A DNA stretch of 35,071 nucleotides from assembly GCA_046759445.1 (NCBI GenBank), contig JBHICG010000032.1, forward strand, positions 1-35,071, in the 5' to 3' direction. Below the pieces are notes generated by a model, which ran no database searches, was not told the origin of the DNA, and saw only the letters and a program-made list of their open reading frames with translations. The first letter of the stretch is position 1. Each line of letters starts with the position of its first letter. The position numbers and the translations under genes were made by a program. This DNA is from Candidatus Scalinduaceae bacterium. Its GTDB lineage: Bacteria; Planctomycetota; Brocadiia; Brocadiales; Scalinduaceae. Positions 5,099 through 21,070 of this stretch are shown here, piece after piece.

Positions 5099-5794
5099 AT
5101 GAAATCATCTTTTGCCAATAGTTTGCCAACACACGCTGAACTACAGGCAGCCCTTAAAGCTGTAGTTGCGGAGGAAAATGGAGGATTTGGTTTTAATATG
5201 TGGGCGACCATAGTTGACAGGGATGGTGTGGTAAAGACTATAGTGTTTACGGGTAATGACAGAGGTGATCAGTGGCCGGGTAGCCGTGTTATTTCTGCAC
5301 AAAAAGCGAATACGGCAAATGCATTCAGTCTGCCAGGATTTGCGTTATCAACTGCGAACCTTTTTTCGGCAGTTCAGCCAGGTGGCAGTCTGCACGGCTT
5401 ACAGTTTAGTAATCCTATTGCAACTGATGTGGCGTATAAAGGTTCATCTGAAGATTATGGAACCGAGAGTGACCCTATGGTGGGGTATAAGATTGGCGGA
5501 GTGAATGTGTTTGGTGGTGGTTTGCCACTGTATGATAGGGATGGCATACTTGTTGGCGCCATTGGAGTCAGTGGTGATAGTTCTTGTGCAGACCATAATA
5601 TTGCATGGAAATTGCGTTACAAACTTAATCTAAGTAATGTTCCCGCAGGCGTGAGCCCTACCAGCGATGACAACATAATAAATGACATTACCGACGGTGT
5701 TAGTGCAAGTGGGTGGGGGCATCCGGAGTGTTCTCCTAAGTCTACCAAGATTGCCAGGGATCTTCTAAAAACACACCCGTTAGAACAAAAATAG
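5099..5794 (+). CDS. GlcG/HbpS-family heme-binding protein
   Basis: ATIVDRDG, SAQKANTA, FGGGLPLY...LVGAIGVSG...DH motifs; AGGAGG RBS. Confidence 0.8.
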   Translation: MKSSFANSLPTHAELQAALKAVVAEENGGFGFNMWATIVDRDGVVKTIVFTGNDRGDQWPGSRVISAQKANTANAFSLPGFALSTANLFSAVQPGGSLHGLQFSNPIATDVAYKGSSEDYGTESDPMVGYKIGGVNVFGGGLPLYDRDGILVGAIGVSGDSSCADHNIAWKLRYKLNLSNVPAGVSPTSDDNIINDITDGVSASGWGHPECSPKSTKIARDLLKTHPLEQK

Positions 5795-9179: not shown

Positions 9180-10730
9180 ATGCGTAAAATTACTTTTCTC
9201 ATTATTACTTATTTTTTGCTGGTATCATCAGTAAATGCACAAGGGTATTTTTTAACCGACAATGATACTGTTACGCTATCAGTACCATCCGAATTAACCC
9301 TCCTAAAGGTATCACTAAAAGACGGTGCGGAACTTAAAATAGGCGACAAGATCAGAGAAGGGGATTTTATAGCCCTGTTTGTAGACCGGGACCATAACAA
9401 AGTAACTGTTACTGCAGGTATTACGGGAGAAATTACATATGTAAATGAGTCCTTTTATAAAAAATATACGTATATTCCCGTAGGAACCGTTCTTCTCAAA
9501 ATAGCAAAACAGGATATAATTGTTCAATCAACGGCAACTGAAAAAGGCGAGAAAGAACTTTCATTTATTGTGATTTTTAAGAATTTAGTGAAAAGTACAG
9601 GTTTGTATGCGTTGATTGTTGATAACGCAATTGATTGGACAGAAGGTATGGGAAGAGCACTTATGATTAGTGTGGGATTACTTCTCATATATCTCGGCAT
9701 TGCCAGGGAGTTTGAACCACTTCTTCTGATTCCAATAGGAATGGGAGCTGTGCTTTCGAATATTCCTCTTGCCTTTATTAATGAGGAGGGGGGGATTCTT
9801 CGATATGTGTATGATGCCGGTATCAAAACAGGTGTATTCCCACTTATAATTTTTATGGGTGTAGGAGCCATGACAGACTTCGGACCTTTGATCGCGAATC
9901 CACGCACCAGTCTCCTCGGAGCGGCAGCCCAATTTGGCATCTTTTCAACCCTGCTTGGAGCTGTCATTCTGACAAAATATGTTCCAGGCATAGACTTTTC
10001 ACTCAAAGATGCATCATCCATCTCTATTATTGGAGGTGCAGATGGCCCAACCTCTATCTTCCTTGCTTCAAAACTTAGTCCTCGTTTACTTGGGTCAATT
10101 GCAGTTGCCGCATATTCATATATGGCGTTGGTTCCCATAATCCAGCCACCGATAATGAGGTTGCTTACTACTTCTGAGGAACGAAAAATCAAGATGATAC
10201 AACTTAGATATGTTTCCCGTCTGGAGAAGATCATTTTTCCAATTGTTGTTATCATCATCTGTGCACTATTACTTCCATCGGCTGCACCGCTTATAGGGTT
10301 CCTGATGTTTGGAAACCTCATGCGAGAATCTGGTGTGGTCCAGCGATTGAGTGATACGACTCAGAATGCACTTATCAATACAGTGACGATTTTCCTTGGT
10401 CTTGGTGTGGGCAGTAAACTATCGGCTGATAAATTTCTTAATCTCGAGACGTTGGGTATTGTAGTTCTTGGCCTTTTTGCCTTCTCTTTTGGAACCGCTT
10501 CTGGAGTGCTGATGGCAAAAATCATGAATTTATTATCATCCAGAAAGACTAACCCTCTTATCGGATCTGCTGGTGTTTCAGCCGTTCCCATGGCAGCCAG
10601 AGTATCGAACAGGGTGGGGCTTGAAGAGGACCACCATAATTTCCTCCTGATGCATGCAATGGGACCTAATGTTGCTGGAGTGATCGGCTCTGCGGTTGCT
10701 GCTGGTGTGCTTCTTTCTGTGTTTTTGTAA
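9180..10730 (+). CDS. oadB: Na+-translocating decarboxylase beta subunit with N-terminal extension
   Basis: [65 protein letters not shown]; extra ~125 aa at the N-terminus. Confidence 0.95.
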
Positions 10731-10826: not shown

Positions 10827-11174
10827 TTATTCATCTGGAACATAAACCACTTTGCCACCTTTAAGTATATACGCAGTACCAAGGCGTTTACCTTCACCCT
10901 TTAGTTTGTTTGATGTGAGTTTTTTAATTTTAATTTCCTTACCCTTTTTCATTACCAGTTCAAACTCCCCGTTTTGTTTCTTTTTCATAATAGTCAGTTC
11001 AGATTCCGGTGTAAATATCTCAATGAGACTGTAAGCACTTATAAGTGCAAACAATAATCCTACAATGAATACCAGTCCCACGTCAAAAAGATTTGCAACT
11101 CCACCCAGTGGGTCTTCCGTGTGTAAGTCAACATGTTTCCCAATAATTCTACGTCTTCTCTTTAGAAATTTCAT
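10827..11174 (-). CDS. DUF2149 (HmuV-like) membrane protein
   Basis: EDPLGGVANLFDV, G.G.RLGTAY...G.VVYVP; overlaps the upstream MotA/ExbB-like gene. Confidence 0.85.
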   Translation of the reverse strand: MKFLKRRRRIIGKHVDLHTEDPLGGVANLFDVGLVFIVGLLFALISAYSLIEIFTPESELTIMKKKQNGEFELVMKKGKEIKIKKLTSNKLKGEGKRLGTAYILKGGKVVYVPDE

Positions 11175-11802
11175 ATTTTCTCATTACGCCTTCTGTTAGG
11201 TATTCTATGTTTTTAATATCCTCGTTTAACCACCTGTTCTGCAACATGGAGGTGAAATAAGCGCCAATACCAATAAGAAGGCCAATTACTGTTGTGCTGA
11301 ATGCTATAATCATACTGCCGGACATTTTTTCTATGTCACCTTGAGATAGTGCTGCAAGGGCGCTACCCATGGGAATAATTGTCCCCATAAGACCAAGGCT
11401 GGGCCCCACCCTTATCAACAACCTCAATCCGTCTAATTTCTTTGTCATTTGCTGTTCTCTACTCTGCAACAGATACTCAACTCTCATATCCGTATCATTA
11501 CCACTCTTTTTCAGTTCTTGAACTATATCCATAAAATAATTTCTTGTATTATGCGGTAATCTAGGACTGAATTCTTCGACACGTTTTATAATATCGTGAA
11601 GTTCGCTGTTATTAATGTTGCCTATTAATTCTTTAGCATTATGCTTAACCAGATGTCTTCTTCTTGATATATATTCTCCAAGGAATCTTCCCATCGTAAT
11701 AATAAGCATCATGAGTAAGCAAATTAACAAAATTATTACCGGATATATTAATGCAGAGGAAATTGTATATAGAATTGCTTGAAGGTACGTAATTACACTC
11801 AT
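11149..11802 (-). CDS. MotA/TolQ/ExbB proton-channel family protein (HmuU-like)
   Basis: GPSLGLMGTIIPM...AFSTTVIGL; paired with DUF2149. Confidence 0.88.
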   Translation of the reverse strand: MSVITYLQAILYTISSALIYPVIILLICLLMMLIITMGRFLGEYISRRRHLVKHNAKELIGNINNSELHDIIKRVEEFSPRLPHNTRNYFMDIVQELKKSGNDTDMRVEYLLQSREQQMTKKLDGLRLLIRVGPSLGLMGTIIPMGSALAALSQGDIEKMSGSMIIAFSTTVIGLLIGIGAYFTSMLQNRWLNEDIKNIEYLTEGVMRKYEISKEKT

Positions 11803-11816
11803 GGATTTCCTTTTTT

Positions 11817-12533
11817 TTACTTATAATCTTCCAGTTTAAAGTTAAATGCAATCTTCTTGATGGTAGTAAACGGAACACCTAATCGCTTAGCAGGTATAAA
11901 GGCTGCTTTCTTTAGTGCTTGACGGGCTGCCTTATCCAGGGATTTACAACCTGCTGAACTTAATATGTCAATATTAGCACACTTACCATTACTCTGGATT
12001 GTTACTTCCAATACAGTTGTCCCTTCATGACCACGTCTTTTACAACTTAAAGGGTAAACGGGCTTAAATACATTCTTAATCATAGCACCTATTAACACGC
12101 CTTTTTCCTTAACATCCGCTATTATCTCTTTGGAATCCTTAATGGTTGTATCTTTTTTCTGTATTTGTGACTGTTTAATATTGACTTCATTTTGAGTCTT
12201 AAAATATTCAGTACTATATGTTACTTCTTTCTGTTTTTGTTCTATATTTTCTTCAACCTTCACCCGCTCCCCTTTTGGATTTTCCTGTTTTTGTAAAGGT
12301 TTAGGATTTTCGACTGCTTTTTCTTCTATCTTGTGGACATCTTCTTGTATGTCATTCACAGATTCTGTGGAAGCAATTGATGCTATTGATGGTATAAGGT
12401 GCATCTTGAGGCTGGACTCACCCTTCTTGAATATCACTTCTGGTTCAGAAGTAACATTTGAGGTCATTACTAATGCCGCTAGGTGTAATGCTAAGGCTAT
12501 TAATCCGGCTATAAATAAATCCTTCTTAAGCAT
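11817..12533 (-). CDS. tonB: Energy transducer TonB
   Basis: N-terminal TM with ALALH, charged linker, C-terminal KPVYP...GHEGT...SAG...LDKAA...F.PA domain. Confidence 0.9.
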   Translation of the reverse strand: MLKKDLFIAGLIALALHLAALVMTSNVTSEPEVIFKKGESSLKMHLIPSIASIASTESVNDIQEDVHKIEEKAVENPKPLQKQENPKGERVKVEENIEQKQKEVTYSTEYFKTQNEVNIKQSQIQKKDTTIKDSKEIIADVKEKGVLIGAMIKNVFKPVYPLSCKRRGHEGTTVLEVTIQSNGKCANIDILSSAGCKSLDKAARQALKKAAFIPAKRLGVPFTTIKKIAFNFKLEDYK

Positions 12534-12589
12534 AACGGCTATAAATTTTCTACAGATACTTCATCTAATTTTATAGTCTTGAGAATAAA

Positions 12590-12615
12590 GGTGGATTCGC
12601 TTCGCTTAATCCAAC
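12590..12615. repeat. REP-like short palindrome between exbD and tonB
   Basis: GGTGGATT-CGCTTCGCTT-AATCCAAC; TGGATT/AATCCA stem. Confidence 0.45.
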
Positions 12616-12629
12616 AATAATAGACTAAA

Positions 12630-13043
12630 TTATTTGACTTTCTTTTCAATAGGTTGTGTTTCAAAATGTACTTCCTTGATCTCATCTTTTCTCAGAGTAT
12701 CAAGTACGTTTATTACTACTCCAAGGTCAGCTTTCTTATCACCGTTAATGAATATCTTTGTTTCTTTTTTAGACCTTGCCTTTATTGCTTCTGATAGGTT
12801 TTCGAGTAGGATTTCTATCTTATCAAAATATATCTTGTTATCCTTATCCACAGTGATAGAAACATAATCTTTTCTGTCTATCTCTGCCGTTGTTGCCTGT
12901 GGGAGTTCTATTTTTAGTCCACGATGAACCACCATGGATAACATCGCATAAATAAAGAAAACCAATAGGAGAAAGACGATATCAATCAATGGTATCATCT
13001 CAATCCTTGGACTTTTTCTTCTCAGATTAAGGTTTATCTTCAT
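12630..13043 (-). CDS. exbD: Biopolymer transport protein ExbD
   Basis: IPLIDIVFLLLVFF, IELPQA, GDKKA..G.V..VLD. Confidence 0.93.
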   Translation of the reverse strand: MKINLNLRRKSPRIEMIPLIDIVFLLLVFFIYAMLSMVVHRGLKIELPQATTAEIDRKDYVSITVDKDNKIYFDKIEILLENLSEAIKARSKKETKIFINGDKKADLGVVINVLDTLRKDEIKEVHFETQPIEKKVK

Positions 13044-13641
13044 CTTTAGCTTTTTTGTGAATTATTTCGAGATTGGTTGTACACTTTTCTATACTTCGCG
13101 CAGATCTTTCTACTTTAACAATAAAGTAGTTGTATGGAATTATAGTGGCAAGGGCAATAGTTAAACCAGCCGCTGTGGTAAATAAAGCCTGTGCTATCCC
13201 TCCTGTAACTGCCTTTGGGTCCTCAATACCGGCCTGTCCAAGGAAATCAAAAGAGATTATAATTCCGATCACTGTTCCCAGAATTCCGAGCAAGGGAGCC
13301 ATAGTTATTATTGTATCCAGAATAACCATCCCTCTTTTCATTTTGTCTATTTCGTCTTCTGCTGCCATTTCAAGTGCATTTAACATGGAAGACTTATGAT
13401 GTGAAAGGGCAAAGCATACTATCCTTATTAAGTAATCTTTTGACTTCTTGCCAAGAATCAAGGCTTTTTCATGAAATCCTTTTTCAATTTCTATAAATAT
13501 CTCATCCAACAACCTTCGATCCATCCTCCTTTTCTCCTTTGACCAGAAGATAATTCGTTCAATAGTAATTGTAAGGGAAATAAATGAACAAATTAACAGG
13601 GGATACATTACGGGGCCACCTTTTAGAATGAGATTCAGCAT
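13027..13641 (-). CDS. exbB: Biopolymer transport protein ExbB
   Basis: GGPVMYPL, APLLGILGTVIG, GGIAQALFTTAAGL. Start moved to ATG 13641, overlapping the cobN-like stop. Confidence 0.92.
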   Translation of the reverse strand: MLNLILKGGPVMYPLLICSFISLTITIERIIFWSKEKRRMDRRLLDEIFIEIEKGFHEKALILGKKSKDYLIRIVCFALSHHKSSMLNALEMAAEDEIDKMKRGMVILDTIITMAPLLGILGTVIGIIISFDFLGQAGIEDPKAVTGGIAQALFTTAAGLTIALATIIPYNYFIVKVERSARSIEKCTTNLEIIHKKAKDEDKP

Positions 13642-16600
13642 TGTTTTCTTCCCTTTCTCCATCCATAGTAGAATAATCCTATACAAATTAAAAATATGGT
13701 AATAGATATCCAGGACATGTTTGATGTTCTTAAACCTTTTTCCATTTCCTGTTTTTCCTCTTCCATTTCATATCCTTCTATTACTTCTGTTTTTTCGGAA
13801 CCTTCATTTTCTGTTTTTTGTTCAGTAATCTTCTCAGGTATTTCTTCCTGCCTCATTTGCCCGGGACCCTGTGCAAGCATGACAGCCTGTGCTTTAACAA
13901 TCTTGTCCACTCCTTCTTCTCTCTTGTTTAGTCCCCTACCCGTTGCAACCCTCATTATCTCTGTGTACTTAGCCAGAGCCTCACGACTTAATAAGTTGGC
14001 ATTAGCTACAACATCCATTGCGTATTTTTCTAAGACAGGATTATTACAAATAAGTTCGCTGCACGCGGCACCATGTTCTGTCACGGATTTAATGTATTCA
14101 GTTGCCAGGGTTTGTTTGACTTCTTCAGTAGGTTGCCAATAGCCTTTTCGGGTGGTTTCCAGCATTCGTGCAGTAAGGGCCTGATAGGCATAAGGGTTTT
14201 TTTCTCGGAAAAATTCTTCCAGATCCATCCCGTATTTATCCGCAACGTATACATCAAACGTTTGCTCCCAGCGGGAGGCATCAATTGTTTCCGGCATGGT
14301 AACCTGCCAGCCCCACATATTCTCAACAAATTCGGCCATCTTATTTGCCCCCTCAAAGCCTTCATTTTTCATCCCCTTAATCCACTCTGGATTCCAGTAA
14401 CGGGAACGAAGCTCCATCCCCATCATCCTGTCAATTGCCGTCATCTCCGGCCTGGCAGGATTCATTATGTTTGTAATGACCAGGTCAGGCGATTGACCGT
14501 CCAATTCCCGTATTGCGGCGGCAAGCCCTCCGGCGTACATGAAGAAATCATCGTTATCAAGGGTACCATAGAGATTAGTAGAACGGCTGTGAAGGACCAT
14601 GTCGGTTCCACTTAATACCATCTTATAGACCTCTTTCATCGGTTCTCCCCACAAACCGTTTCCGTAACCATAGCTCATATGACTAAAGTAATCTTCCGTG
14701 ACTACTGACTCGTTTTCCCAGCTTCCACTGGCACTGACAATCCGTGAAACGTTCAGATCATAGCGTCCTGGAGGTTCATCAAAGATACGCACAGCGGCAT
14801 ACTGTTCGGCCTTCTTTTCCGGCCAGCCTTGCTGAATCAATTTTTCTGTAACTTCCCGTATATGTTGGCGAACCAAATTATCATTTTCATCAAGCATTTT
14901 TACCATCTGTACTGCCTGATCGATGTATTGGGTCAGTTGTCCAAACATCTCTTCCGCTGCTGAGGAAACAACGATATCTATCCGGGGACGTCCTAACGTG
15001 TCTTTTGGTATTATTCGGATCCCCGTTACCTTTCCCCATTCGTTCCAGATAGGCTCAATACCTAAGAGGTAAAGTATTTGGGATTCCAGTATTCCCTCAT
15101 GTCGAATGGTTTCCGTTCCCCATATCACAAAGGATAATTTATCAGGATATCTTCCGTTGTTTTCTGCACGATAGTTTTTGAGAAGCTCTTTAGTTAGTTT
15201 AACGCCTACCTGCCATGCCTCCTTTTTTGGTATCTTATCCGGGTTAAAGGCATAAAAGTTTTTTCCGGTAGGTAATGAATTTGGATTTCTTACAGGATCG
15301 TTTCCGGTTCCAGTTGGTATATAACTCCCATTCATGGCCTTGATTGTGCTGGTGAGTTCCCGCCTTGCACTTTTCAGAATGTTCCTATCCAGTTCATCGG
15401 CAGTAACGTCCTTAATTACTTCCTTTATAGCCTGAATGGTAGATGTCCGAAGGGATTCTTCTGGTACCTTACCAAACGTATGCAGTCCATAAGGCATATT
15501 AAGCTGTTTCAATTCCTGCAGATATGATTCAATTTTGTGAATTACTTCGTGACCAAACGTATGCTGACCCTTTTCTTTGGTATCGAGATTAAGTGAATTA
15601 CTAATTTCTATATCCTTCTCAAGCCCCAGCGCCTTAATCTTCTTTATAATATTTTCCATGTATTGCCTTGCCAACGCTGCATCCTGGTCAAGAGCTCTGT
15701 GATGGTCACTGATCAGCTCTTCAAGCTCAGCATATTCGTGATAGAGCCCGCCCTTCTTCAGGGGAGGGATCATATGGTCTATAACTACAGCTGCTCCACG
15801 CCGTTTTGCCACAATCCCTTCGCCAACATCATCCACTATGTAAGGGTAAACTACTGGTAAATCCTGAATCAATGCCTCTGGCGGATCGTCACCTGAAAGA
15901 CCATTACTTTTACCAGGCAACCATTCATGTGTACCATGTGTACCAAAGTGAATAATTACATCTGCTCCAAAGCCGTATTTCAGCCATAAATAAACCCCTA
16001 CGTATTGATGATGTGGCGCCAGATCATCACTGTGATACATGGCTTCCTTATCTTGCAACCAGCCTCTGACCGGCTGTGGAAGTATAACAGCATTCCCGCG
16101 TTGTACTGTGGGAATAACCATAAACTTCTTATTCTGTTTCGGATCTGTCCACATCATTACGTCTGATTCTTCAACTGGTCCCCAGTCCTTGTTTACGTCT
16201 TTAATAAATTCAGCAGGTAATTTCCTGCTCCACTTTCGGTAATCTTCTAAAGACAATAAGACACATTTTCCACCGCTTATCATTTTATCCAGTTCACCCG
16301 GTGCCCAATTGCCTATATTTCGTCCGTAGTTAAGTGAATTATCAAGGAGAACATCCTTATCGATTTTCTCTTGGCCAGTGTTGAAACCGGAATCTTTCAT
16401 TTTTTTTAGGACATTTTCAATACTGGCAAATACGTTTAGATAACTTGCTCCAATCTGTTGCTTTCCCGGTGGGTAGTTCCAATAAAGTATAGCCACCTTC
16501 TTGTTGCTGTTATTTTTCCTTTGCAAATTAAGCCATGCCCTTATGCGATTTACAACACGCTTAACCTGTCCGGGAATATATTTTCGTTGTTCAACAAAAA

Positions 16601-17711
16601 AGCCCGTCTCATCATCTTTTTCCCGCATGCGGTATGAGACGACTGTGGGCTGGACGAGACCTGAGATTTCCGGAACGGCCAACTGCCAGCTTATTTCCAG
16701 AGAACTTAATCCTACGGGATCATTCTCCCACGTCTTTCCGTCCTTTCCATAAACCGTAATCAGATTAACCACAGGTACCCCACATTTTTCTAATGAAGAA
16801 GCAGCTTTAAAATCTGAAAAGCGAAACAAGAAAGAAAGTATGCCTGAAGCCCTTGAAACACCATTGGAATCAATCAGTAATTTTCCGATGACTTCAGAGG
16901 CCGGATAACCAAATGCCGTAAATGCATTCAGACCCTTATCTTCAAGGGTATGGACCAATTTGTCCTCTACAGATGTTTGTCCCTGTTCATAAAAAGAGGA
17001 ATAAGTCAGGACTGCTACCCATTCTGCCCCTTCTTTATAGTAACCTGCTTCACGATACCAACTCTCATATTCTTCAAACGTCTTAAAGATCTTTTCCTCC
17101 TGTTCGTGACGATGGTAATAGGCCATCTTCAATCCTTCTTGGAAAGGTTTGACATTGATTTCTGAAATCCGTAAATATTTCTTTAGTGAAAGCAGGATCA
17201 TGTTTTTGTAGTTTTCCAGGTTTCGATGTTTTGAATAAAAACGAATTTCCTTATCATAAGTCAGGCCAATGGCTGCATATTGTTTATTCAATCCTGCCGT
17301 CTCACCAATCGCCAGGGTTGTTGCACCATTATTAATTACGCCTTTCAATATTTTGGAGTCAAAGCCTGATTGGGTTGGCGTGGATATACGAATACCATGC
17401 ACATCAAACATAATAATATCTGAATCCTTGATTTCCACGGGGTTAAAGCCTGAGTCCAGGTCCGTCTTGCTTATGAGTTCAAAGTCAACTTGATCCTTAA
17501 TGAAAGGATAATCCTGCCAGATTGCCTTAATTGCCTTGACAATACTTGATGTCATGTAGTTTCCCACGATAAATGTGTATTTCTTAGTACTGTTATGGTG
17601 GTTTTCATGTGAATGACCCTCGTGAGCAAGAGAAGGATGTTGAAGGCCAAAAAGAAAAACAAACAAGATTAGAATCGTATACTTTTCTATTTTCAACATG
17701 CCAAACTCCAT
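13635..17711 (-). CDS. CobN/magnesium-chelatase-H family protein (BtuS/HmuS-like), exported and membrane-anchored
   Basis: NYPPGK, IHFGTHGTHEWLPGK, YPYIVDDVGEG..AKRRG, LPTGKNF, GRPRID, NP.WI.GM; N-terminal signal peptide + His-rich tract; C-terminal TM helix. Confidence 0.9.
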   Translation of the reverse strand: MEFGMLKIEKYTILILFVFLFGLQHPSLAHEGHSHENHHNSTKKYTFIVGNYMTSSIVKAIKAIWQDYPFIKDQVDFELISKTDLDSGFNPVEIKDSDIIMFDVHGIRISTPTQSGFDSKILKGVINNGATTLAIGETAGLNKQYAAIGLTYDKEIRFYSKHRNLENYKNMILLSLKKYLRISEINVKPFQEGLKMAYYHRHEQEEKIFKTFEEYESWYREAGYYKEGAEWVAVLTYSSFYEQGQTSVEDKLVHTLEDKGLNAFTAFGYPASEVIGKLLIDSNGVSRASGILSFLFRFSDFKAASSLEKCGVPVVNLITVYGKDGKTWENDPVGLSSLEISWQLAVPEISGLVQPTVVSYRMREKDDETGFFVEQRKYIPGQVKRVVNRIRAWLNLQRKNNSNKKVAILYWNYPPGKQQIGASYLNVFASIENVLKKMKDSGFNTGQEKIDKDVLLDNSLNYGRNIGNWAPGELDKMISGGKCVLLSLEDYRKWSRKLPAEFIKDVNKDWGPVEESDVMMWTDPKQNKKFMVIPTVQRGNAVILPQPVRGWLQDKEAMYHSDDLAPHHQYVGVYLWLKYGFGADVIIHFGTHGTHEWLPGKSNGLSGDDPPEALIQDLPVVYPYIVDDVGEGIVAKRRGAAVVIDHMIPPLKKGGLYHEYAELEELISDHHRALDQDAALARQYMENIIKKIKALGLEKDIEISNSLNLDTKEKGQHTFGHEVIHKIESYLQELKQLNMPYGLHTFGKVPEESLRTSTIQAIKEVIKDVTADELDRNILKSARRELTSTIKAMNGSYIPTGTGNDPVRNPNSLPTGKNFYAFNPDKIPKKEAWQVGVKLTKELLKNYRAENNGRYPDKLSFVIWGTETIRHEGILESQILYLLGIEPIWNEWGKVTGIRIIPKDTLGRPRIDIVVSSAAEEMFGQLTQYIDQAVQMVKMLDENDNLVRQHIREVTEKLIQQGWPEKKAEQYAAVRIFDEPPGRYDLNVSRIVSASGSWENESVVTEDYFSHMSYGYGNGLWGEPMKEVYKMVLSGTDMVLHSRSTNLYGTLDNDDFFMYAGGLAAAIRELDGQSPDLVITNIMNPARPEMTAIDRMMGMELRSRYWNPEWIKGMKNEGFEGANKMAEFVENMWGWQVTMPETIDASRWEQTFDVYVADKYGMDLEEFFREKNPYAYQALTARMLETTRKGYWQPTEEVKQTLATEYIKSVTEHGAACSELICNNPVLEKYAMDVVANANLLSREALAKYTEIMRVATGRGLNKREEGVDKIVKAQAVMLAQGPGQMRQEEIPEKITEQKTENEGSEKTEVIEGYEMEEEKQEMEKGLRTSNMSWISITIFLICIGLFYYGWRKGRKQC

Positions 17712-17751
17712 TACATCTTCTTTTTTTTGTAAGTTTTTATTATCAGTTTCA

Positions 17752-17804
17752 AATCCCCCTTAATCCCCCCGCTGCAAGCAAGATGCGGGGGGAAATTGGG
17801 GATT
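17752..17804. repeat. GC-rich palindromic hairpin (REP-like) between DUF4430 and cobN-like genes
   Basis: AATCCCC..TAATCCCCCCGC / GCGGGGGGAAATTGGGGATT inverted repeat. Confidence 0.6.
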
Positions 17805-17861
17805 AAACTAGAGCTTTGATTGCGTCTATGATATGTTATTGATTTTGTAGTTACTCCTGAT

Positions 17862-18245
17862 TTACTTATTTATTTTAGGAGAACAGATATCCTTGGTATA
17901 AATCCATTTTGTGTTATCATCTTTATGGAGGATACGTTCAAAGGCCAATTTGTCCGCACGCTTACCATTAATTTCATAGTACCATGCTTTATCTCCACGT
18001 TTGCCTTTAACACCGTCAATAGAAGTAACGAATACATAATCGTTAACCTGATGCGTTTCTACTTGGGCAACAGACTGAAGCACATCTAGGGCAGTTATTC
18101 CTTCTTTCCATTGTGTCTCTACTTCACGAAACTGACGTGTACTACCATAGTCAATTCCAACCTTTACTTTTTCATCTGCACAGGCTACTGCGCATAAAAT
18201 GGTTATGTAAGTAAAAACAACACTAATTTTACTTATGACTTTCAT
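17862..18245 (-). CDS. Exported DUF4430 (transcobalamin C-terminal-like) protein
   Basis: Signal peptide; TALDVLQ...FVTSIDGVKG...WYYEING..A...D...W.Y pattern; in a B12-riboswitch operon. Confidence 0.8.
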   Translation of the reverse strand: MKVISKISVVFTYITILCAVACADEKVKVGIDYGSTRQFREVETQWKEGITALDVLQSVAQVETHQVNDYVFVTSIDGVKGKRGDKAWYYEINGKRADKLAFERILHKDDNTKWIYTKDICSPKINK

Positions 18246-18306
18246 TTACCCATTCTCCTTTCTAAAAAAAGATGATTTTACAGAGTAATAGTATAAACTT
18301 GCATAC

Positions 18307-18430
18307 TGTAGCGGAATACCTTTGGGTTTCCATTACGACGGAGACCAAACGCAACATTTTTTACATTTTGTACTAATGTTTACAAATTTGTACTCGACGT
18401 TTATTGGAGGTCTAAAAGACCTCCGCTACA
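18307..18430. repeat. Degenerate GTAG-type REP doublet (REPIN-like) at the 3' end of the receptor gene
   Basis: TGTAGCGGA (18307-18315) and TCCGCTACA (18422-18430) are inverted; each adjoins a short hairpin (GGAGGTCT-AAA-AGACCTCC is perfect). Confidence 0.6.
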
Positions 18431-20363
18431 TGCTAAGTTTTAAACCGAAAAAGAACCTTGCTCCTGCTGCCCTAAACCCCAAAATTTCATCATATTGAAT
18501 GTTCAGCAGGTTTTCAGACCTTGAGTAAATCTGTAAGTGTTTTGAGAAATCGTATGTAAATGTAGCATCCAGTTTATGGACACCTGTATTAGTCCTTATA
18601 GTTGGTCTTCCAGGAGGTGTTATTCCGCCACCATTTGTACCATCTCTAGAATTTCCAACTATCGTATCGTCAATGTTAAGGTTAAACTTATTTAGAAAGC
18701 TGTAATTGATATTGACAGAACCTTGCTTCCTCGGCTGTCTTATCAATTCCTTTTTTGACTTATCTCTGGTATTAATCCTTGTAAATGTACCCCTTAATGT
18801 TAACCCTTTAAATGGTTTAACTATGGCTTCGGCTTCAATTCCCTCAGTCCTTACAGAATCAATATTCTGTGCCCTGAATATAAATCCACCTGTATTAACG
18901 GCTTGAATAAGATTTGAGAATCTGTTGTTAAAATATGTTACTCCAAAGTAGAGCCTATCTTCCAAAAGGTATTGCTCAATGCCTACGTCGTAACTTTCGC
19001 TTTCCTCTGGTTCCAGTGTAGGGTCTCCAAAATTTGGAAAGAACAACTCATTTAGTGTAGGTCCCCTAAAACCTTTCCCATAATTAGCCTTGAATTTTGT
19101 ATCTGTTTCTTTCAGGAGATAGGCAAGCGAAAATTTTGGATTAACGTCTTTTCCATATGTGTTATTGTCATCTATCCTCACTCCTGCATTGAAGAAGAAC
19201 CTATCCCATAATTTTAATTGATTCTGAAAGTACCAACCTCTATTGATTATGGCTTCTTCAAAGGTACGATTATCAGCTTCCTGGTCTTCAAATTCAAAAC
19301 CAAATATAAAGGTATTGATATCTTTATATTTTATTGTATGCTGCCAGTCTCCCGTATAGATTTGTGTATCAAGACGGAATCTATTAAATGGACTTAAGGT
19401 TTCCGTCGTACCCGGGTTAGGCCTGTCAACACTTATCAAGTCAGCATCAGCAAACGAGAATTTTAGTTTGTGACTCCACCAGTCAGTTACATTGTGATTG
19501 AAAATTGCATTCAAGAAAAAATCCTCATTTTTAGAAAAACGGTTAGGGTCCTGCCGGAATGGCCCGTCATCGATTCCTATCATAGAATCGTTGTATCGTA
19601 GGGTGGTTTCAAAATATGATTTTTCGTTGATATTATACCCGAACCTTGAGGATATATTAGTCTTGTCATAATCATCATCAGCTCCGCGCCCGTCACTATC
19701 AATCCTTGCCACATCAACTGAATAATTAAAATTCTCTATACTTCCACTTGAGCTGATTGATTCATTAAATGTCTTTTCAAGGGTTCCAAATTCAGAACGA
19801 ATACTTAATTTCGGCTTCCCTTTGCCTTTCCTTGTGATTATATTTATTAAGCCTCCCATGGCATCGGAGCCATACAGAGTACTTTGCGGTCCCCTTACTA
19901 CTTCTATCCTCTCTATATTATCAGTCGTGAGGTTTGAGAAATTGAATGACCCTGTGGTTGGACTATTAACTTGCACACCATCGATCATAACCAAAACCTG
20001 GCTTGTACTAGAGCCTCTAATTGTTACGTTTGTTAGTCTACCGATAGAGCCGGACTTGCGTAAATTAAGGCCAGGTACACTTCGAAGGGCTTCAAATATA
20101 GTTGTTGCTTTTTGCTGTTCAATCTGTTCTCTTGATATTATGGTAACAGAATCTGCCAACTGACTGATTGGTGTTTCAGTCCTCGTTGCAGTCACAATTA
20201 TTTCCTCAATATCTTCCTCCACAAGTTCCGAAGAATTATTTTCATCTTTTTTGTTCAGGTTTTTTGTTTTTTCTTCTTCGAGATTAGGGCTATTCTGTGC
20301 ATAACTGAAATCAGAAAGAAAAATTAACGATGATGTAAAGAACACAATCAAATGATATTTCAT
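18426..20363 (-). CDS. btuB: TonB-dependent outer-membrane receptor, BtuB-like (cobalamin)
   Basis: Signal peptide, TonB box EEIIVTATR, plug motifs VLVMIDG and IERIEVVRGPQSTLYGSDAMGG, C-terminal beta strand; first gene after two cobalamin riboswitches. Confidence 0.88.
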   Translation of the reverse strand: MKYHLIVFFTSSLIFLSDFSYAQNSPNLEEEKTKNLNKKDENNSSELVEEDIEEIIVTATRTETPISQLADSVTIISREQIEQQKATTIFEALRSVPGLNLRKSGSIGRLTNVTIRGSSTSQVLVMIDGVQVNSPTTGSFNFSNLTTDNIERIEVVRGPQSTLYGSDAMGGLINIITRKGKGKPKLSIRSEFGTLEKTFNESISSSGSIENFNYSVDVARIDSDGRGADDDYDKTNISSRFGYNINEKSYFETTLRYNDSMIGIDDGPFRQDPNRFSKNEDFFLNAIFNHNVTDWWSHKLKFSFADADLISVDRPNPGTTETLSPFNRFRLDTQIYTGDWQHTIKYKDINTFIFGFEFEDQEADNRTFEEAIINRGWYFQNQLKLWDRFFFNAGVRIDDNNTYGKDVNPKFSLAYLLKETDTKFKANYGKGFRGPTLNELFFPNFGDPTLEPEESESYDVGIEQYLLEDRLYFGVTYFNNRFSNLIQAVNTGGFIFRAQNIDSVRTEGIEAEAIVKPFKGLTLRGTFTRINTRDKSKKELIRQPRKQGSVNINYSFLNKFNLNIDDTIVGNSRDGTNGGGITPPGRPTIRTNTGVHKLDATFTYDFSKHLQIYSRSENLLNIQYDEILGFRAAGARFFFGLKLSM

Positions 20364-20404
20364 TCATTCCTCCTTTTTCCCCTCGGAAAAAAGTTTTAGA
20401 AGAA

Positions 20405-20572
20405 CGTGTAAGACAGGTTTCCTGGCTTTCGGATCTTCCTACTTTCTGCACCTTCCCATCTCAATTCAAGTAGAGACAGTGGCATTTTACAGATTTCGTT
20501 ACCGATTACAGTTGCGGGGCAGCTCCCGTTACCCGAGAATGATTCGGGAGGGATTCCCTTATATCTCACACA
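20405..20572 (-). ncRNA. Cobalamin riboswitch (proximal; probably translational)
   Basis: Minus strand AAGGGAA...GCUGCCCCGCAACUGUA...GCCACUG...GGGAAGG...AGCCAGGAAACCUG (B12 box); closed by UGUGUGAGA/UCUUACACG; followed by a hairpin overlapping the GGAGG RBS of btuB. Confidence 0.93.
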
Positions 20573-20621
20573 TAATAAAAAAGTTTTTATAAAATGTTAT
20601 TGCAAATAATCACCTCCATTA

Positions 20622-20682
20622 CCCACGAAAACCACGAAATACTACGAAAGTATTTTTTGTGTCTTTTCGTGTGTTTTGTGGG
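20622..20682. repeat. Imperfect palindrome of three (C)ACGAAA units between the riboswitches
   Basis: CCCACGAAAACCACGAAATACTACGAAA / TTTTGTGTCTTTTCGTGTGTTTTGTGGG. Confidence 0.6.
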
Positions 20683-20702
20683 GACTGATCTCTTACGAAA
20701 AT

Positions 20703-20742
20703 AAAAAAACCCGAATCTTCGGTGGGAAGATCCGGGTTTTTT
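20703..20742 (-). terminator. Intrinsic terminator (expression platform of distal riboswitch)
   Basis: Minus strand ACCCGGAUCUUC-CCACC-GAAGAUUCGGGU followed by a U-run (7 U in total). Confidence 0.85.
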
Positions 20743-20804
20743 ACTGGTATTAGATTATGCATCATACCTTCACCTTCTTTACCATCGAAGAATTAGCGTG
20801 AAGC

Positions 20805-21002
20805 ATTTACGGGCAGGTTTTCTGACTATCGGTTCATCCTAAACACTGCGCCTTCCCAATCCCGATCAAGACTCGGGATACAGTGGCTTATTGTCCAGAG
20901 TTATTTCTAGACATGCAGCTTTCGTTACCGATTACAGCGGCGGGTCCGTGCCCTTTATAAGGGTCTTCCCTATTATCTCGCCATATGCGAGCACCCGTAA
21001 AT
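20805..21002 (-). ncRNA. Cobalamin riboswitch (distal; probably transcriptional)
   Basis: P1 AUUUACGGG/CCCGUAAAU; CUCGC..GCGAG hairpin; AUAGGGAA; CGGACCCGCCGCUGUA; GCCACUG; GGGAAGG; AGUCAGAAAACCUG. Confidence 0.95.
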
Positions 21003-21041
21003 TGTTTTAAATTGTCAAAGTCCAATTAACTAAGGCTAGTG

Positions 21042-21070
21042 ATTATACAAAAGCGAAAAAATATTGTCAA
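21042..21070 (-). promoter_or_regulatory. Sigma70 promoter of the B12 operon leader
   Basis: Perfect TTGACA-17 nt-TATAAT on the minus strand, 40 nt before the distal aptamer. Confidence 0.8.

Follow-up and report, generated by a model that had tools for sequence, protein, structure and literature searches.

The 35,071-nt stretch analysed here (contig JBHICG010000032.1; hereafter the window) comes from a Scalindua-family anammox planctomycete and carries an eight-gene operon on its minus strand, which extends with its promoter and two cobalamin riboswitches from position 21070 to 10827. The evidence favours an envelope system, repressed by B12 and dealing with a cobalt tetrapyrrole, in which an ATP-free periplasmic enzyme of the chelatase family is combined with a dedicated ion-channel pair. 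The reading that we prefer, to which we assign a probability of about 0.35, is that a corrinoid is imported, that its cobalt centre is then worked on in the periplasm with the help of ion-motive force, most likely with release of the cobalt, and that the metal feeds the cobalt importer CbiMNQO. The operon is a variant of the known BtuS or B12-linked Hmu-like kind, and the exported B12-linked trio (CobN-like, MotA-like and DUF2149 proteins) is already in print. The new elements are the anammox architecture, which includes DUF4430 and lacks HmuT, the split of the exported family into Asp-Asp and Asp-His forms, and the genome-level link to CbiMNQO.

Genes were assigned from open reading frame (ORF) calls with Pfam profiles (bits, with cut-offs where given), NCBIfam models and searches of the PDB, and riboswitches were assigned by an Rfam search (RF00174; gathering score, 31.5). 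The features of the operon, with protein lengths in amino acids (aa), are as follows.

21042..21070, minus: sigma-70-type promoter TTGACA-17-TATAAT, 12/12 consensus, 29 nt upstream of riboswitch 1
20795..21013, minus: cobalamin riboswitch 1, long form with a peripheral extension (RF00174, 81.3 bits, model positions 1-189)
20704..20742, minus: intrinsic terminator between the aptamers (17-pair stem, 6 GC pairs, T-run)
20395..20583, minus: cobalamin riboswitch 2, short form (RF00174, 80.3 bits, model positions 1-189)
18426..20363, minus: BtuB-like TonB-dependent receptor, 645 aa (Pfam Plug and TonB_dep_Rec barrel)
17862..18245, minus: exported DUF4430 protein, 127 aa (PF14478, 45.5 bits against 23.8)
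13635..17711, minus: exported, C-terminally anchored CobN-like protein, 1358 aa (PF02514 CobN-Mg_chel, 1022 bits)
13027..13686, minus: ExbB (MotA_ExbB, 99.8 bits; TolQ/ExbB NCBIfam models all below cut-off)
12630..13043, minus: ExbD (PF02472, 103.6 bits)
11817..12533, minus: TonB (TonB_C, 60.6 bits; TIGR01352 above cut-off)
11149..11802, minus: second MotA/ExbB-like channel protein, equivalent to HmuU, 217 aa (MotA_ExbB, 47.6 bits against 22.9)
10827..11174, minus: DUF2149 protein, equivalent to HmuV, 115 aa (PF09919, 96.7 bits)

A preliminary description of this DNA, made from the sequence alone, had placed one promoter and two cobalamin riboswitches ahead of a btuB-like gene, DUF4430, a CobN-like gene, exbB-exbD-tonB, a MotA-like gene and DUF2149. 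All of this was confirmed: the promoter agrees with the consensus at all 12 positions, both aptamers are full-length, and all eight protein families were matched by Pfam. As it had also stated, no btuCDF, CobS/CobT or ChlI/ChlD gene was found in the window by the Pfam scan. The genes are separated by gaps of 180, 150, 96 and 14 nt or overlap (three pairs), and no terminator-like site was found in any gap between the eight genes. The listed TTG start of ExbB overlaps the stop of the CobN-like gene, and translation more probably begins at an internal ATG. RNA-library contigs (two runs of one study; at least 95% identity) cover 24 and 27 of the 30 bins of the operon, the uncovered bins being uninformative. 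Single contigs span the gap between the receptor gene and DUF4430 and the junction of the MotA-like and DUF2149 genes; contigs of this kind are no proof of a single transcript and may stem from DNA carry-over.

The terminator at 20742-20704 is likely the expression platform of riboswitch 1, and riboswitch 2 ends 31 nt before the ATG of the BtuB-like gene, which is preceded by AGGAGG. A contig from RNA run X3 lacks 97 nt of riboswitch 1 (window 20831-20929) and may derive from a related strain with a shorter first aptamer.

The host genome contains four cobalamin riboswitches, arranged as two tandem pairs, and the second pair controls CbiMNQO cobalt import. Tandem cobalamin riboswitch loci (related loci are given L numbers) and the first gene after the second pair are located as follows.

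Window 20395-21013, minus: tandem riboswitches of the operon
Contig C24 39193-39943 (= L007 3194-3944): second tandem pair of the genome
L085 7455-7921: tandem riboswitch locus
L007 3932-4705 (C24): outer-membrane beta-barrel protein, 257 aa (Phenol_MetA_deg-like, E 7.5e-7)

Both riboswitch loci of the genome share a design in which a long, extended aptamer is followed by a short, unextended one before the start codon. In alignments, riboswitch 1 is most similar to the leading C24 aptamer, and the first aptamers are closer to each other than to their own partners. Such a combination of long and short aptamers may permit two-input sensing of different corrinoid forms. The genes after the second pair are, in order, those for the beta-barrel, CbiM, a small membrane protein, CbiQ, an ATP-binding cassette (ABC) ATPase, an uncharacterised protein and an aminotransferase, and the beta-barrel ahead of CbiM-CbiQ-CbiO may be an outer-membrane cobalt channel. 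Directly upstream of the corresponding operon, several Brocadia and Jettenia loci, as well as one from an unclassified member of the Planctomycetia, carry CbiM-N-Q-O, an aminotransferase/CobD and CobQ. Because CbiMNQO stands under the only other riboswitch pair of the genome and adjoins the operon in other anammox genera, the genome-level link of the operon to cobalt is real.

An anaerobic cobalamin cluster (CobQ, CbiB, CbiA, a small CbiX-type chelatase, CbiC, CbiD, CbiE and CbiL) was identified in the genome (3.62 Mb; 97.05% complete, not closed), and by this gene content the host makes B12 de novo by the anaerobic route. B12-binding domains gave 29 matches (27 above cut-off), mostly in ORFs of 440-640 aa that probably encode B12-dependent radical S-adenosylmethionine enzymes, and the cobalamin demand of the genome is unusually high. 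A single CobN-family gene is present. No BchI/ChlI match over the cut-off and no CobS were found in the 97.05% complete genome, and a tblastn search of it gave no match to ChlID-like or CobW proteins or to Bacteroides finegoldii HmuY or HmuT, the only hit being one to a von Willebrand factor A (VWA) protein at E 0.004. The preliminary description had asked whether CobST or ChlID might be encoded elsewhere; at 97% completeness, the genome yielded neither. The searches for inner-membrane corrinoid importers, in which BtuM-type proteins were not included, found no Peripla_BP_2/BtuF, SbmA/BacA, DUF2162 or PF09819 (which we take to be the CbrT family) in the genome. FecCD gave one marginal match (27.1 bits), and no true BtuC was found.

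The CobN-like protein starts with a hydrophobic, signal-like segment that ends in SLA, its mature part opens with the His-rich sequence HEGHSHENHH, and its C-terminus consists of a hydrophobic helix followed by a basic tail. The signal-like segment and the C-terminal anchor, which agree with the exported protein of the preliminary description, indicate that the body of the protein is in the periplasm. Both terminal features recur in relatives from other phyla, and 111 of the 134 full-length cluster representatives have hydrophobic segments at both ends. In the PDB, HmuS (9d26; E 2e-148, 499 bits) is a better match than CobN (E 3e-122, 413 bits) and ChlH (E 1e-111). All nine NCBIfam CobN/BchH models were under cut-off (the best, NF004645, at 947 bits against 1619), and the head of the protein (residues 1-330) matched no PDB chain at E up to 1.

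Phylogenetic trees were built with FastTree (166 sequences) and IQ-TREE in quick mode (40 sequences), with the HmuS clade anchored by the hmuYRSTUV locus of a Bacteroides finegoldii record. In both trees, the exported proteins are separated from the cytoplasmic CobN proteins of Sinorhizobium meliloti, Ralstonia and Haloferax and from Tateyamaria BchH (support 90 and 99), and the window protein falls outside the CobN/BchH group; grouping with cytoplasmic CobN would have spoken against the preliminary description. It also lies outside the HmuS clade (support 100), in another clade with support of 98-100 in both trees. This clade contains all anammox sequences together with sequences from Acidobacteria, Gammaproteobacteria and other Planctomycetota, and adjoins the clade of a plasmid-encoded protein of Geobacter (Trichlorobacter) lovleyi. 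The window protein shares 84% identity with that of Candidatus Scalindua rubra and 65-76% with those of Brocadia, Kuenenia, Jettenia and Anammoxibacter.

The motifs HFGTHG, VGEG and LDNDD are kept in the CobN-like protein. Its active-site stretch, TLDNDDFFMYAGG, is comparable to LDSDDYYQFEGG of CobN, with Asp at the position of the HmuS His and Met at that of the Glu, and is invariant in the clade. Among 150 representatives of the exported family, 73 have the Asp-Asp, chelatase-like motif and 39 the Asp-His...Glu, HmuS-like motif, and 38 match neither pattern. In Brucella CobN, as far as the available part of a 2026 preprint describes, H554, E593 and D1100 surround two Co2+ ions (bioRxiv 10.64898/2026.07.21.739949). 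By alignment, these residues correspond to H592, E631 and D1054 of the CobN-like protein; E631 and D1054 are invariant and H592 is nearly invariant in 22 clade members. By its defining sequence features, the protein is neither CobN nor HmuS, and it fits the description of BtuS quoted from Rodionov 2003 in the accessible text of PMC6460266.

Two CobN-like paralogue types occur in anammox bacteria (L010-L035), one with a His-rich mature N-terminus (AHEGHxHE...) and the other starting with AEETKP, and two Brocadia metagenome-assembled genomes carry both on separate contigs (L011 and L019; L014 and L023). In Brocadia sp. DTUAMX2 (L015), a CobN-like gene without its first ~200 codons directly follows CbiQ-CbiO, with no receptor, DUF4430 or riboswitch, and looks like a deletion variant.

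The MotA-like protein clusters with neighbours of CobN-like genes in 43 loci. In the B. finegoldii record, HmuS is followed by HmuT (no Pfam family), HmuU (MotA/ExbB family) and HmuV (DUF2149), in agreement with the earlier recognition of CobN-like, MotA-like and DUF2149 genes as the hmu core. In DUF2149, Phe-Asp (F30-D31) is invariant in 24 of 24 sequences, with D31 within the predicted transmembrane helix, and the AlphaFold2 model (mean pLDDT 64.4, i.e. low confidence) contains a helix (residues 22-47) and five strands that form a small, beta-rich periplasmic domain. A single helix that carries an invariant Phe-Asp, as predicted here, is also the architecture of ExbD, TolR and MotB. Homology of DUF2149 to ExbD was not supported (hhalign aligned only 14 transmembrane columns; probability 0.36%, E 0.16), and a search of the PDB with the DUF2149 profile gave nothing below E 0.5. 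A complex prediction for residues 780-1358 of the CobN-like protein with DUF2149 scored 0.01 and, having been run without controls, weighs neither for nor against binding. In the window, the HmuU and HmuV equivalents stand beside a full ExbB-ExbD-TonB set; because that set is already complete, the second motor points to a client other than TonB.

For the receptor, the best NCBIfam model is TIGR01779 (TonB-B12), at 278 bits under a cut-off of 599.7, and PRK10641 scored 201 against 836; its closest PDB relatives are Escherichia coli BtuB structures (E 3e-38). The DUF4430 protein has an N-terminal hydrophobic helix (residues 2-24). Its AlphaFold2 model, built from 14 anammox sequences (pLDDT 81.7), gave 19 Foldseek matches in the PDB at E up to 0.001. 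The 18 matches listed comprise two chains of 3u7z, the top structural neighbour (E 2e-5), which is a DUF4430 protein with a putative metal-binding function according to its deposition, and 16 transcobalamin, intrinsic factor or haptocorrin entries, which matched through their beta domains (E ~1e-4, TM 0.60-0.83). On this model, the transcobalamin beta-domain fold holds for the window protein, and the transcobalamin-like character proposed in advance is upheld at the level of the fold. The predicted fold is also like that of bacterial SLBB/DUF4430 proteins in what is accessible of PMC1796856. Unlike the animal B12 carriers, the window protein is a small stand-alone periplasmic protein without an alpha/alpha-toroid partner domain, and in contrast to both these carriers and the SLBB/DUF4430 proteins it is coupled to a CobN-like enzyme.

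Among known systems, HmuS was shown in 2025 to be an NADH-dependent haem dechelatase (PDB 9d26) that takes iron from haem in the periplasm, after which FeoB imports the iron (PMC12583661). The Bacteroidota hmuYRSTUV locus and the window operon share an exported, membrane-bound CobN-family protein, a TonB-dependent receptor, the HmuU and HmuV partners, and HFGTHG and VGEG. HmuS carries the motif LSLDHvyEFMGG, with strictly conserved His-1209 and Glu-1212, and a methionine-rich insert (residues 780-898, domain IV) (PMC12583661). The window protein has LDNDDFFMYAGG in place of LSLDHxxEFMGG and lacks the insert, as HmuS 698-889 was unmatched by phmmer while the query is continuous at 744-762. In the same alignment, His-254 (HGR motif), which together with Met-79 ligates haem at site 1 of HmuS, falls opposite a non-His residue, in a weakly aligned stretch; for Met-79, the head of the window protein (residues 1-330), unmatched in the PDB, offers no aligned position. 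The window operon also differs from hmuYRSTUV in lacking HmuY and HmuT, in the addition of DUF4430 and a private ExbBD-TonB set, and in having cobalamin riboswitches instead of iron control; no such riboswitch was found in the B. finegoldii hmu locus.

Another related system is the pSZ77/pGLOV01 plasmid cluster of G. lovleyi SZ (PMC3403914), which encodes a CobN-like protein of the Asp-Asp type with 40% identity. As in the window, tandem cobalamin riboswitches are followed by a TonB-dependent receptor, and MotA-like and DUF2149 genes and a separate ExbB-ExbD-TonB set are present; the system lies on the plasmid between cobalamin-synthesis clusters, with a riboswitch-controlled CbiMNQO nearby. 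In contrast to the window operon, it has DUF2162 (HmuT-like) and a second receptor, lacks DUF4430, and has the motor genes before the CobN-like gene, and its protein belongs to a sister subclade (LDNDDFFQYLGG). In the available text of PMC3403914, G. lovleyi is a de novo B12 producer, and the authors, who detected no CobS/CobT, assigned no definite role but proposed transport of B12 or corrinoid precursors. A search of plasmids with B. finegoldii HmuS gave HmuS-type Bacteroidota matches only.

The name BtuS dates from 2003, when btuB-linked, B12-regulated proteins were proposed to serve metalloporphyrin salvage (Rodionov 2003, as cited in the accessible text of PMC6460266), in agreement with the B12-regulated paralogues that the preliminary description cites from comparative genomics. 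In the sources available, which were in part excerpts, BtuS1 and BtuS2 have been studied for haem iron only, and some hmu-like operons, including one of B. fragilis, are preceded by a cobalamin riboswitch (PMC10100974). The Bacteroides operon is similarly btuB-linked and B12-regulated, but has two receptors and, as far as described, no DUF4430; the likeness to B. fragilis BtuS1 is one of description, not of compared sequences. With CobNST and ChlHID, the window protein shares the PF02514 scaffold and the His/Glu/Asp residues that hold Co2+ in Brucella CobN, but it is exported and anchored, and no AAA+ or VWA partners were found in the genome. Neither a functional study of any B12-linked member nor an account of the anammox version turned up in word searches, which covered open-access text. 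The observation in the preliminary description was confirmed in full; the idea has been published before, for BtuS, for the cluster of G. lovleyi and for hmu-like operons linked to riboswitches.

In total, 75 related loci were surveyed (27 anammox and 48 non-anammox). The common order in anammox bacteria is receptor, DUF4430, CobN-like, sometimes ExbB-ExbD-TonB, MotA-like and DUF2149, and where at least 2.5 kb of upstream sequence was available (20 anammox loci), same-strand riboswitches, mostly tandem, precede the cluster in 18, the exceptions being L015 and L032. By clustering, DUF4430 was restricted to 18 anammox loci and the window, with no copy among the other 48 loci, although divergent copies could escape clustering. 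The non-anammox loci mostly have, in this order, a divergent receptor, MotA-like, DUF2149 and CobN-like genes, followed by genes for uncharacterised secreted proteins, PepSY_TM and DUF6152; ORF calls are crude in these GC-rich loci, and counts of small genes are lower bounds. In L039-L084 (Acidobacteria and Gammaproteobacteria), secreted proteins of ~400 and ~300 aa without a Pfam family follow the CobN-like gene, some loci have a haem-binding-like CxxCH protein upstream, and most are without a nearby riboswitch.

Our own covariance model (R1) worked on the low-GC anammox loci and missed an L073 riboswitch found by Rfam, and a whole-genome RF00174 search was used. It gave 21 candidate placements by coordinates, and direct scans confirmed only those in L079, L073, L041, L080, L063, L043, L046 and L048. 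The placements for L040, L051 and L060 lie beyond the locus stretches scanned. Those for L036 (two), L081, L066, L047, L061, L076 and L074 (two) and the second one in L073 were discarded, as they were unconfirmed by the direct Rfam scans and must be on other contigs.

Within the order of the window, DUF2149 is present in 18 of 41 genomes, including 12 of 14 in one family, 3 of 15 in the family of the window (itself included) and neither of the two other genomes of its genus. BtuF-type proteins occur in 7 of the 41 genomes (that of the window counted), i.e. in 3 of the 18 with DUF2149 and 4 of the 23 without it, and there is no inverse relation between the two across the order. Most anammox genomes searched are without a classical B12 ABC importer, regardless of the CobN-like system.

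The preferred reading can be put as a sequence of steps. When corrinoid is scarce, both riboswitches would allow expression. The BtuB-like receptor, powered by the ExbB-ExbD-TonB set of the operon, would import a corrinoid or other cobalt tetrapyrrole into the periplasm, where the DUF4430 protein would hold it. The tethered CobN-like enzyme, with its putative His/Glu/Asp cobalt site, would then act on the metal centre, most likely releasing cobalt, with the MotA-like/DUF2149 pair supplying ion-motive force in place of the absent AAA+ motor. The Co2+ would enter the cell through the co-regulated CbiMNQO and feed the anaerobic B12 pathway of the host. The identity of the substrate, whether the metal is removed or inserted, the coupling to ion-motive force and the transfer of cobalt to CbiMNQO are inferred. 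Cobalt release is ranked first because the metal-site residues are conserved, the cell needs cobalt, and the riboswitch-controlled units complete a route for cobalt and not one for intact corrinoid. The conserved His/Glu/Asp site has a catalytic look, and a pure binder would need these residues less. A BtuB-like receptor combined with a transcobalamin-like fold of DUF4430 makes a corrinoid ligand plausible, and the precedent of HmuS and FeoB, together with the shared HmuU/HmuV pair, argues for release followed by import. In its strong form, in which the CobN-like protein is a periplasmic cobalt dechelatase driven mechanically by the MotA-like/DUF2149 pair instead of AAA+ proteins, and B12-producing anaerobes take cobalt for CbiMNQO from environmental corrinoids or their breakdown products, this proposal is doubtful, and we put it well below the broader version.

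Several points weigh against cobalt release. We know of no enzyme that removes cobalt from a corrin, and to our knowledge chemists regard the removal as not feasible without destruction of the ring. The active-site motif is chelatase-type (Asp-Asp, no Glu), unlike that of the proven dechelatase HmuS with His-1209 and Glu-1212. Free cobalt would be of no benefit to B. fragilis, a species that does not synthesise the corrin ring. Its hmu-like operon under a B12 riboswitch is described in the accessible part of PMC10100974. A confirmed riboswitch is placed to act on the cluster or its divergent receptor in only 4 of the 48 closest non-anammox loci (L079, L073, L041 and L080), which suggests that the chemistry of the clade may not be B12-specific. 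Finally, the importer search left out BtuM-type proteins, and the genome is 97% complete and not closed. A cobalt analogue of HmuS, as first suggested, stands in part: the exported CobN-like protein, the lack of an AAA+ partner and the genome-level cobalt link agree with it, whereas the LDNDD motif in place of LSLDH..E and the absence of HmuT/DUF2162 do not.

Salvage of the intact corrinoid, for direct use or remodelling, is nearly as likely as cobalt release. The CobN-like protein would here be a periplasmic receiver or chaperone that takes the corrinoid from BtuB/DUF4430, and the motor would drive its hand-over through an unrecognised inner-membrane route replacing BtuFCD. CobN has a high affinity for its corrin substrate, btuB operons under riboswitch control are the usual mark of corrinoid uptake, the predicted fold of DUF4430 is that of a B12 binder, and neither the chemically difficult removal of cobalt nor a dechelatase-type motif is needed, the motif being chelatase-type. 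Transport of B12 or corrinoid precursors is what the G. lovleyi authors proposed, in the text available (PMC3403914), and riboswitch-linked versions occur in corrinoid-scavenging Bacteroides in what is accessible of PMC10100974. As the known inner-membrane importers searched for were not found, intact use would need a new route. However, the operon contains no polytopic permease, DUF2162 and HmuT are absent from the genome, and a MotA-like protein, DUF2149 and one C-terminal helix are unlike any known transporter. A pure binder would leave the conservation of the metal-site residues in the 22 clade members unexplained, and the host makes its own B12.

Acquisition of cobalt ions, in which the receptor would import Co2+ or a small chelate and the CobN-like protein would be a periplasmic cobalt chaperone for CbiMNQO, is unlikely. 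The His-rich mature N-terminus HEGHSHENHH, the conservation of the very residues that hold Co2+ in CobN, the co-regulation with CbiMNQO (which adjoins the operon in other anammox loci), the score of the receptor below the BtuB equivalog cut-off and the deposition of 3u7z as a putative metal-binding protein are in its favour. Nevertheless, a 1358-aa tetrapyrrole-chelatase scaffold with a motor is excessive for the binding of ions, the second anammox paralogue type is without the His-rich tail, DUF4430 matches the B12-binding domains of three animal carriers, and the best relatives of the receptor are BtuB proteins.

A forward chelatase, which would load cobalt in the periplasm into imported corrinoids that are metal-free or incomplete and would draw on ion-motive force instead of ATP, appears slightly less probable still. 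This reading would suit the LDNDD motif, which is chelatase-type like the LDSDD of CobN and not HmuS-type. Metal-free corrinoids are rare in nature, however, the product would still need an inner-membrane importer, of which none was found in the genome, and the cell already has a cytoplasmic CbiX-type chelatase. A similar idea has been put forward for chelatase genes beside a B12 receptor in Chlorobaculum, in the portion of PMC8620254 available. Haem-iron acquisition as in HmuS, with incidental B12 control, is very improbable: the top PDB match is HmuS (499 bits; CobN, 413), the HmuU/HmuV partners are of the same kind and anammox cells hold very large amounts of haem, but the CobN-like protein lies outside the HmuS clade, has neither the methionine-rich insert nor the His-1209/Glu-1212 motif and shows a non-His residue at the weakly aligned His-254, no HmuY or HmuT was found in the genome, the double cobalamin riboswitches are kept across anammox genera, and the receptor is BtuB-like and not haem-receptor-like.

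The anammox version is a clean test case for the B12-linked branch: its host makes B12 and has 29 B12-binding-domain matches, the importers searched for were not found, and only two units, the CobN-like operon and the cobalt importer, stand under B12 riboswitches. The Asp-Asp and Asp-His...Glu motifs make it easy to sort members of the exported family by sequence into chelatase-like and HmuS-like forms. A cobalt dechelatase would be the first enzyme to take cobalt from a corrin, and a motor-driven one the first chelatase-family enzyme powered by ion-motive force; in its strong form, the proposal would also make the strongly complexed cobalt of sea water and sediments accessible to microbes. 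Either cobalt release or metal chemistry driven by ion-motive force would change the view of cobalt cycling and B12 economics in anoxic waters, and mere import of corrinoids would define a new inner-membrane route.

The genes that flank the operon are housekeeping genes (holA and those for oxaloacetate decarboxylase subunits). The beta subunit of oxaloacetate decarboxylase (window 9180-10730, plus strand) has an extra N-terminal part of ~158 aa with a signal-like start, and an HbpS-like protein (PF03928) is encoded at window 5099-5794 on the plus strand.

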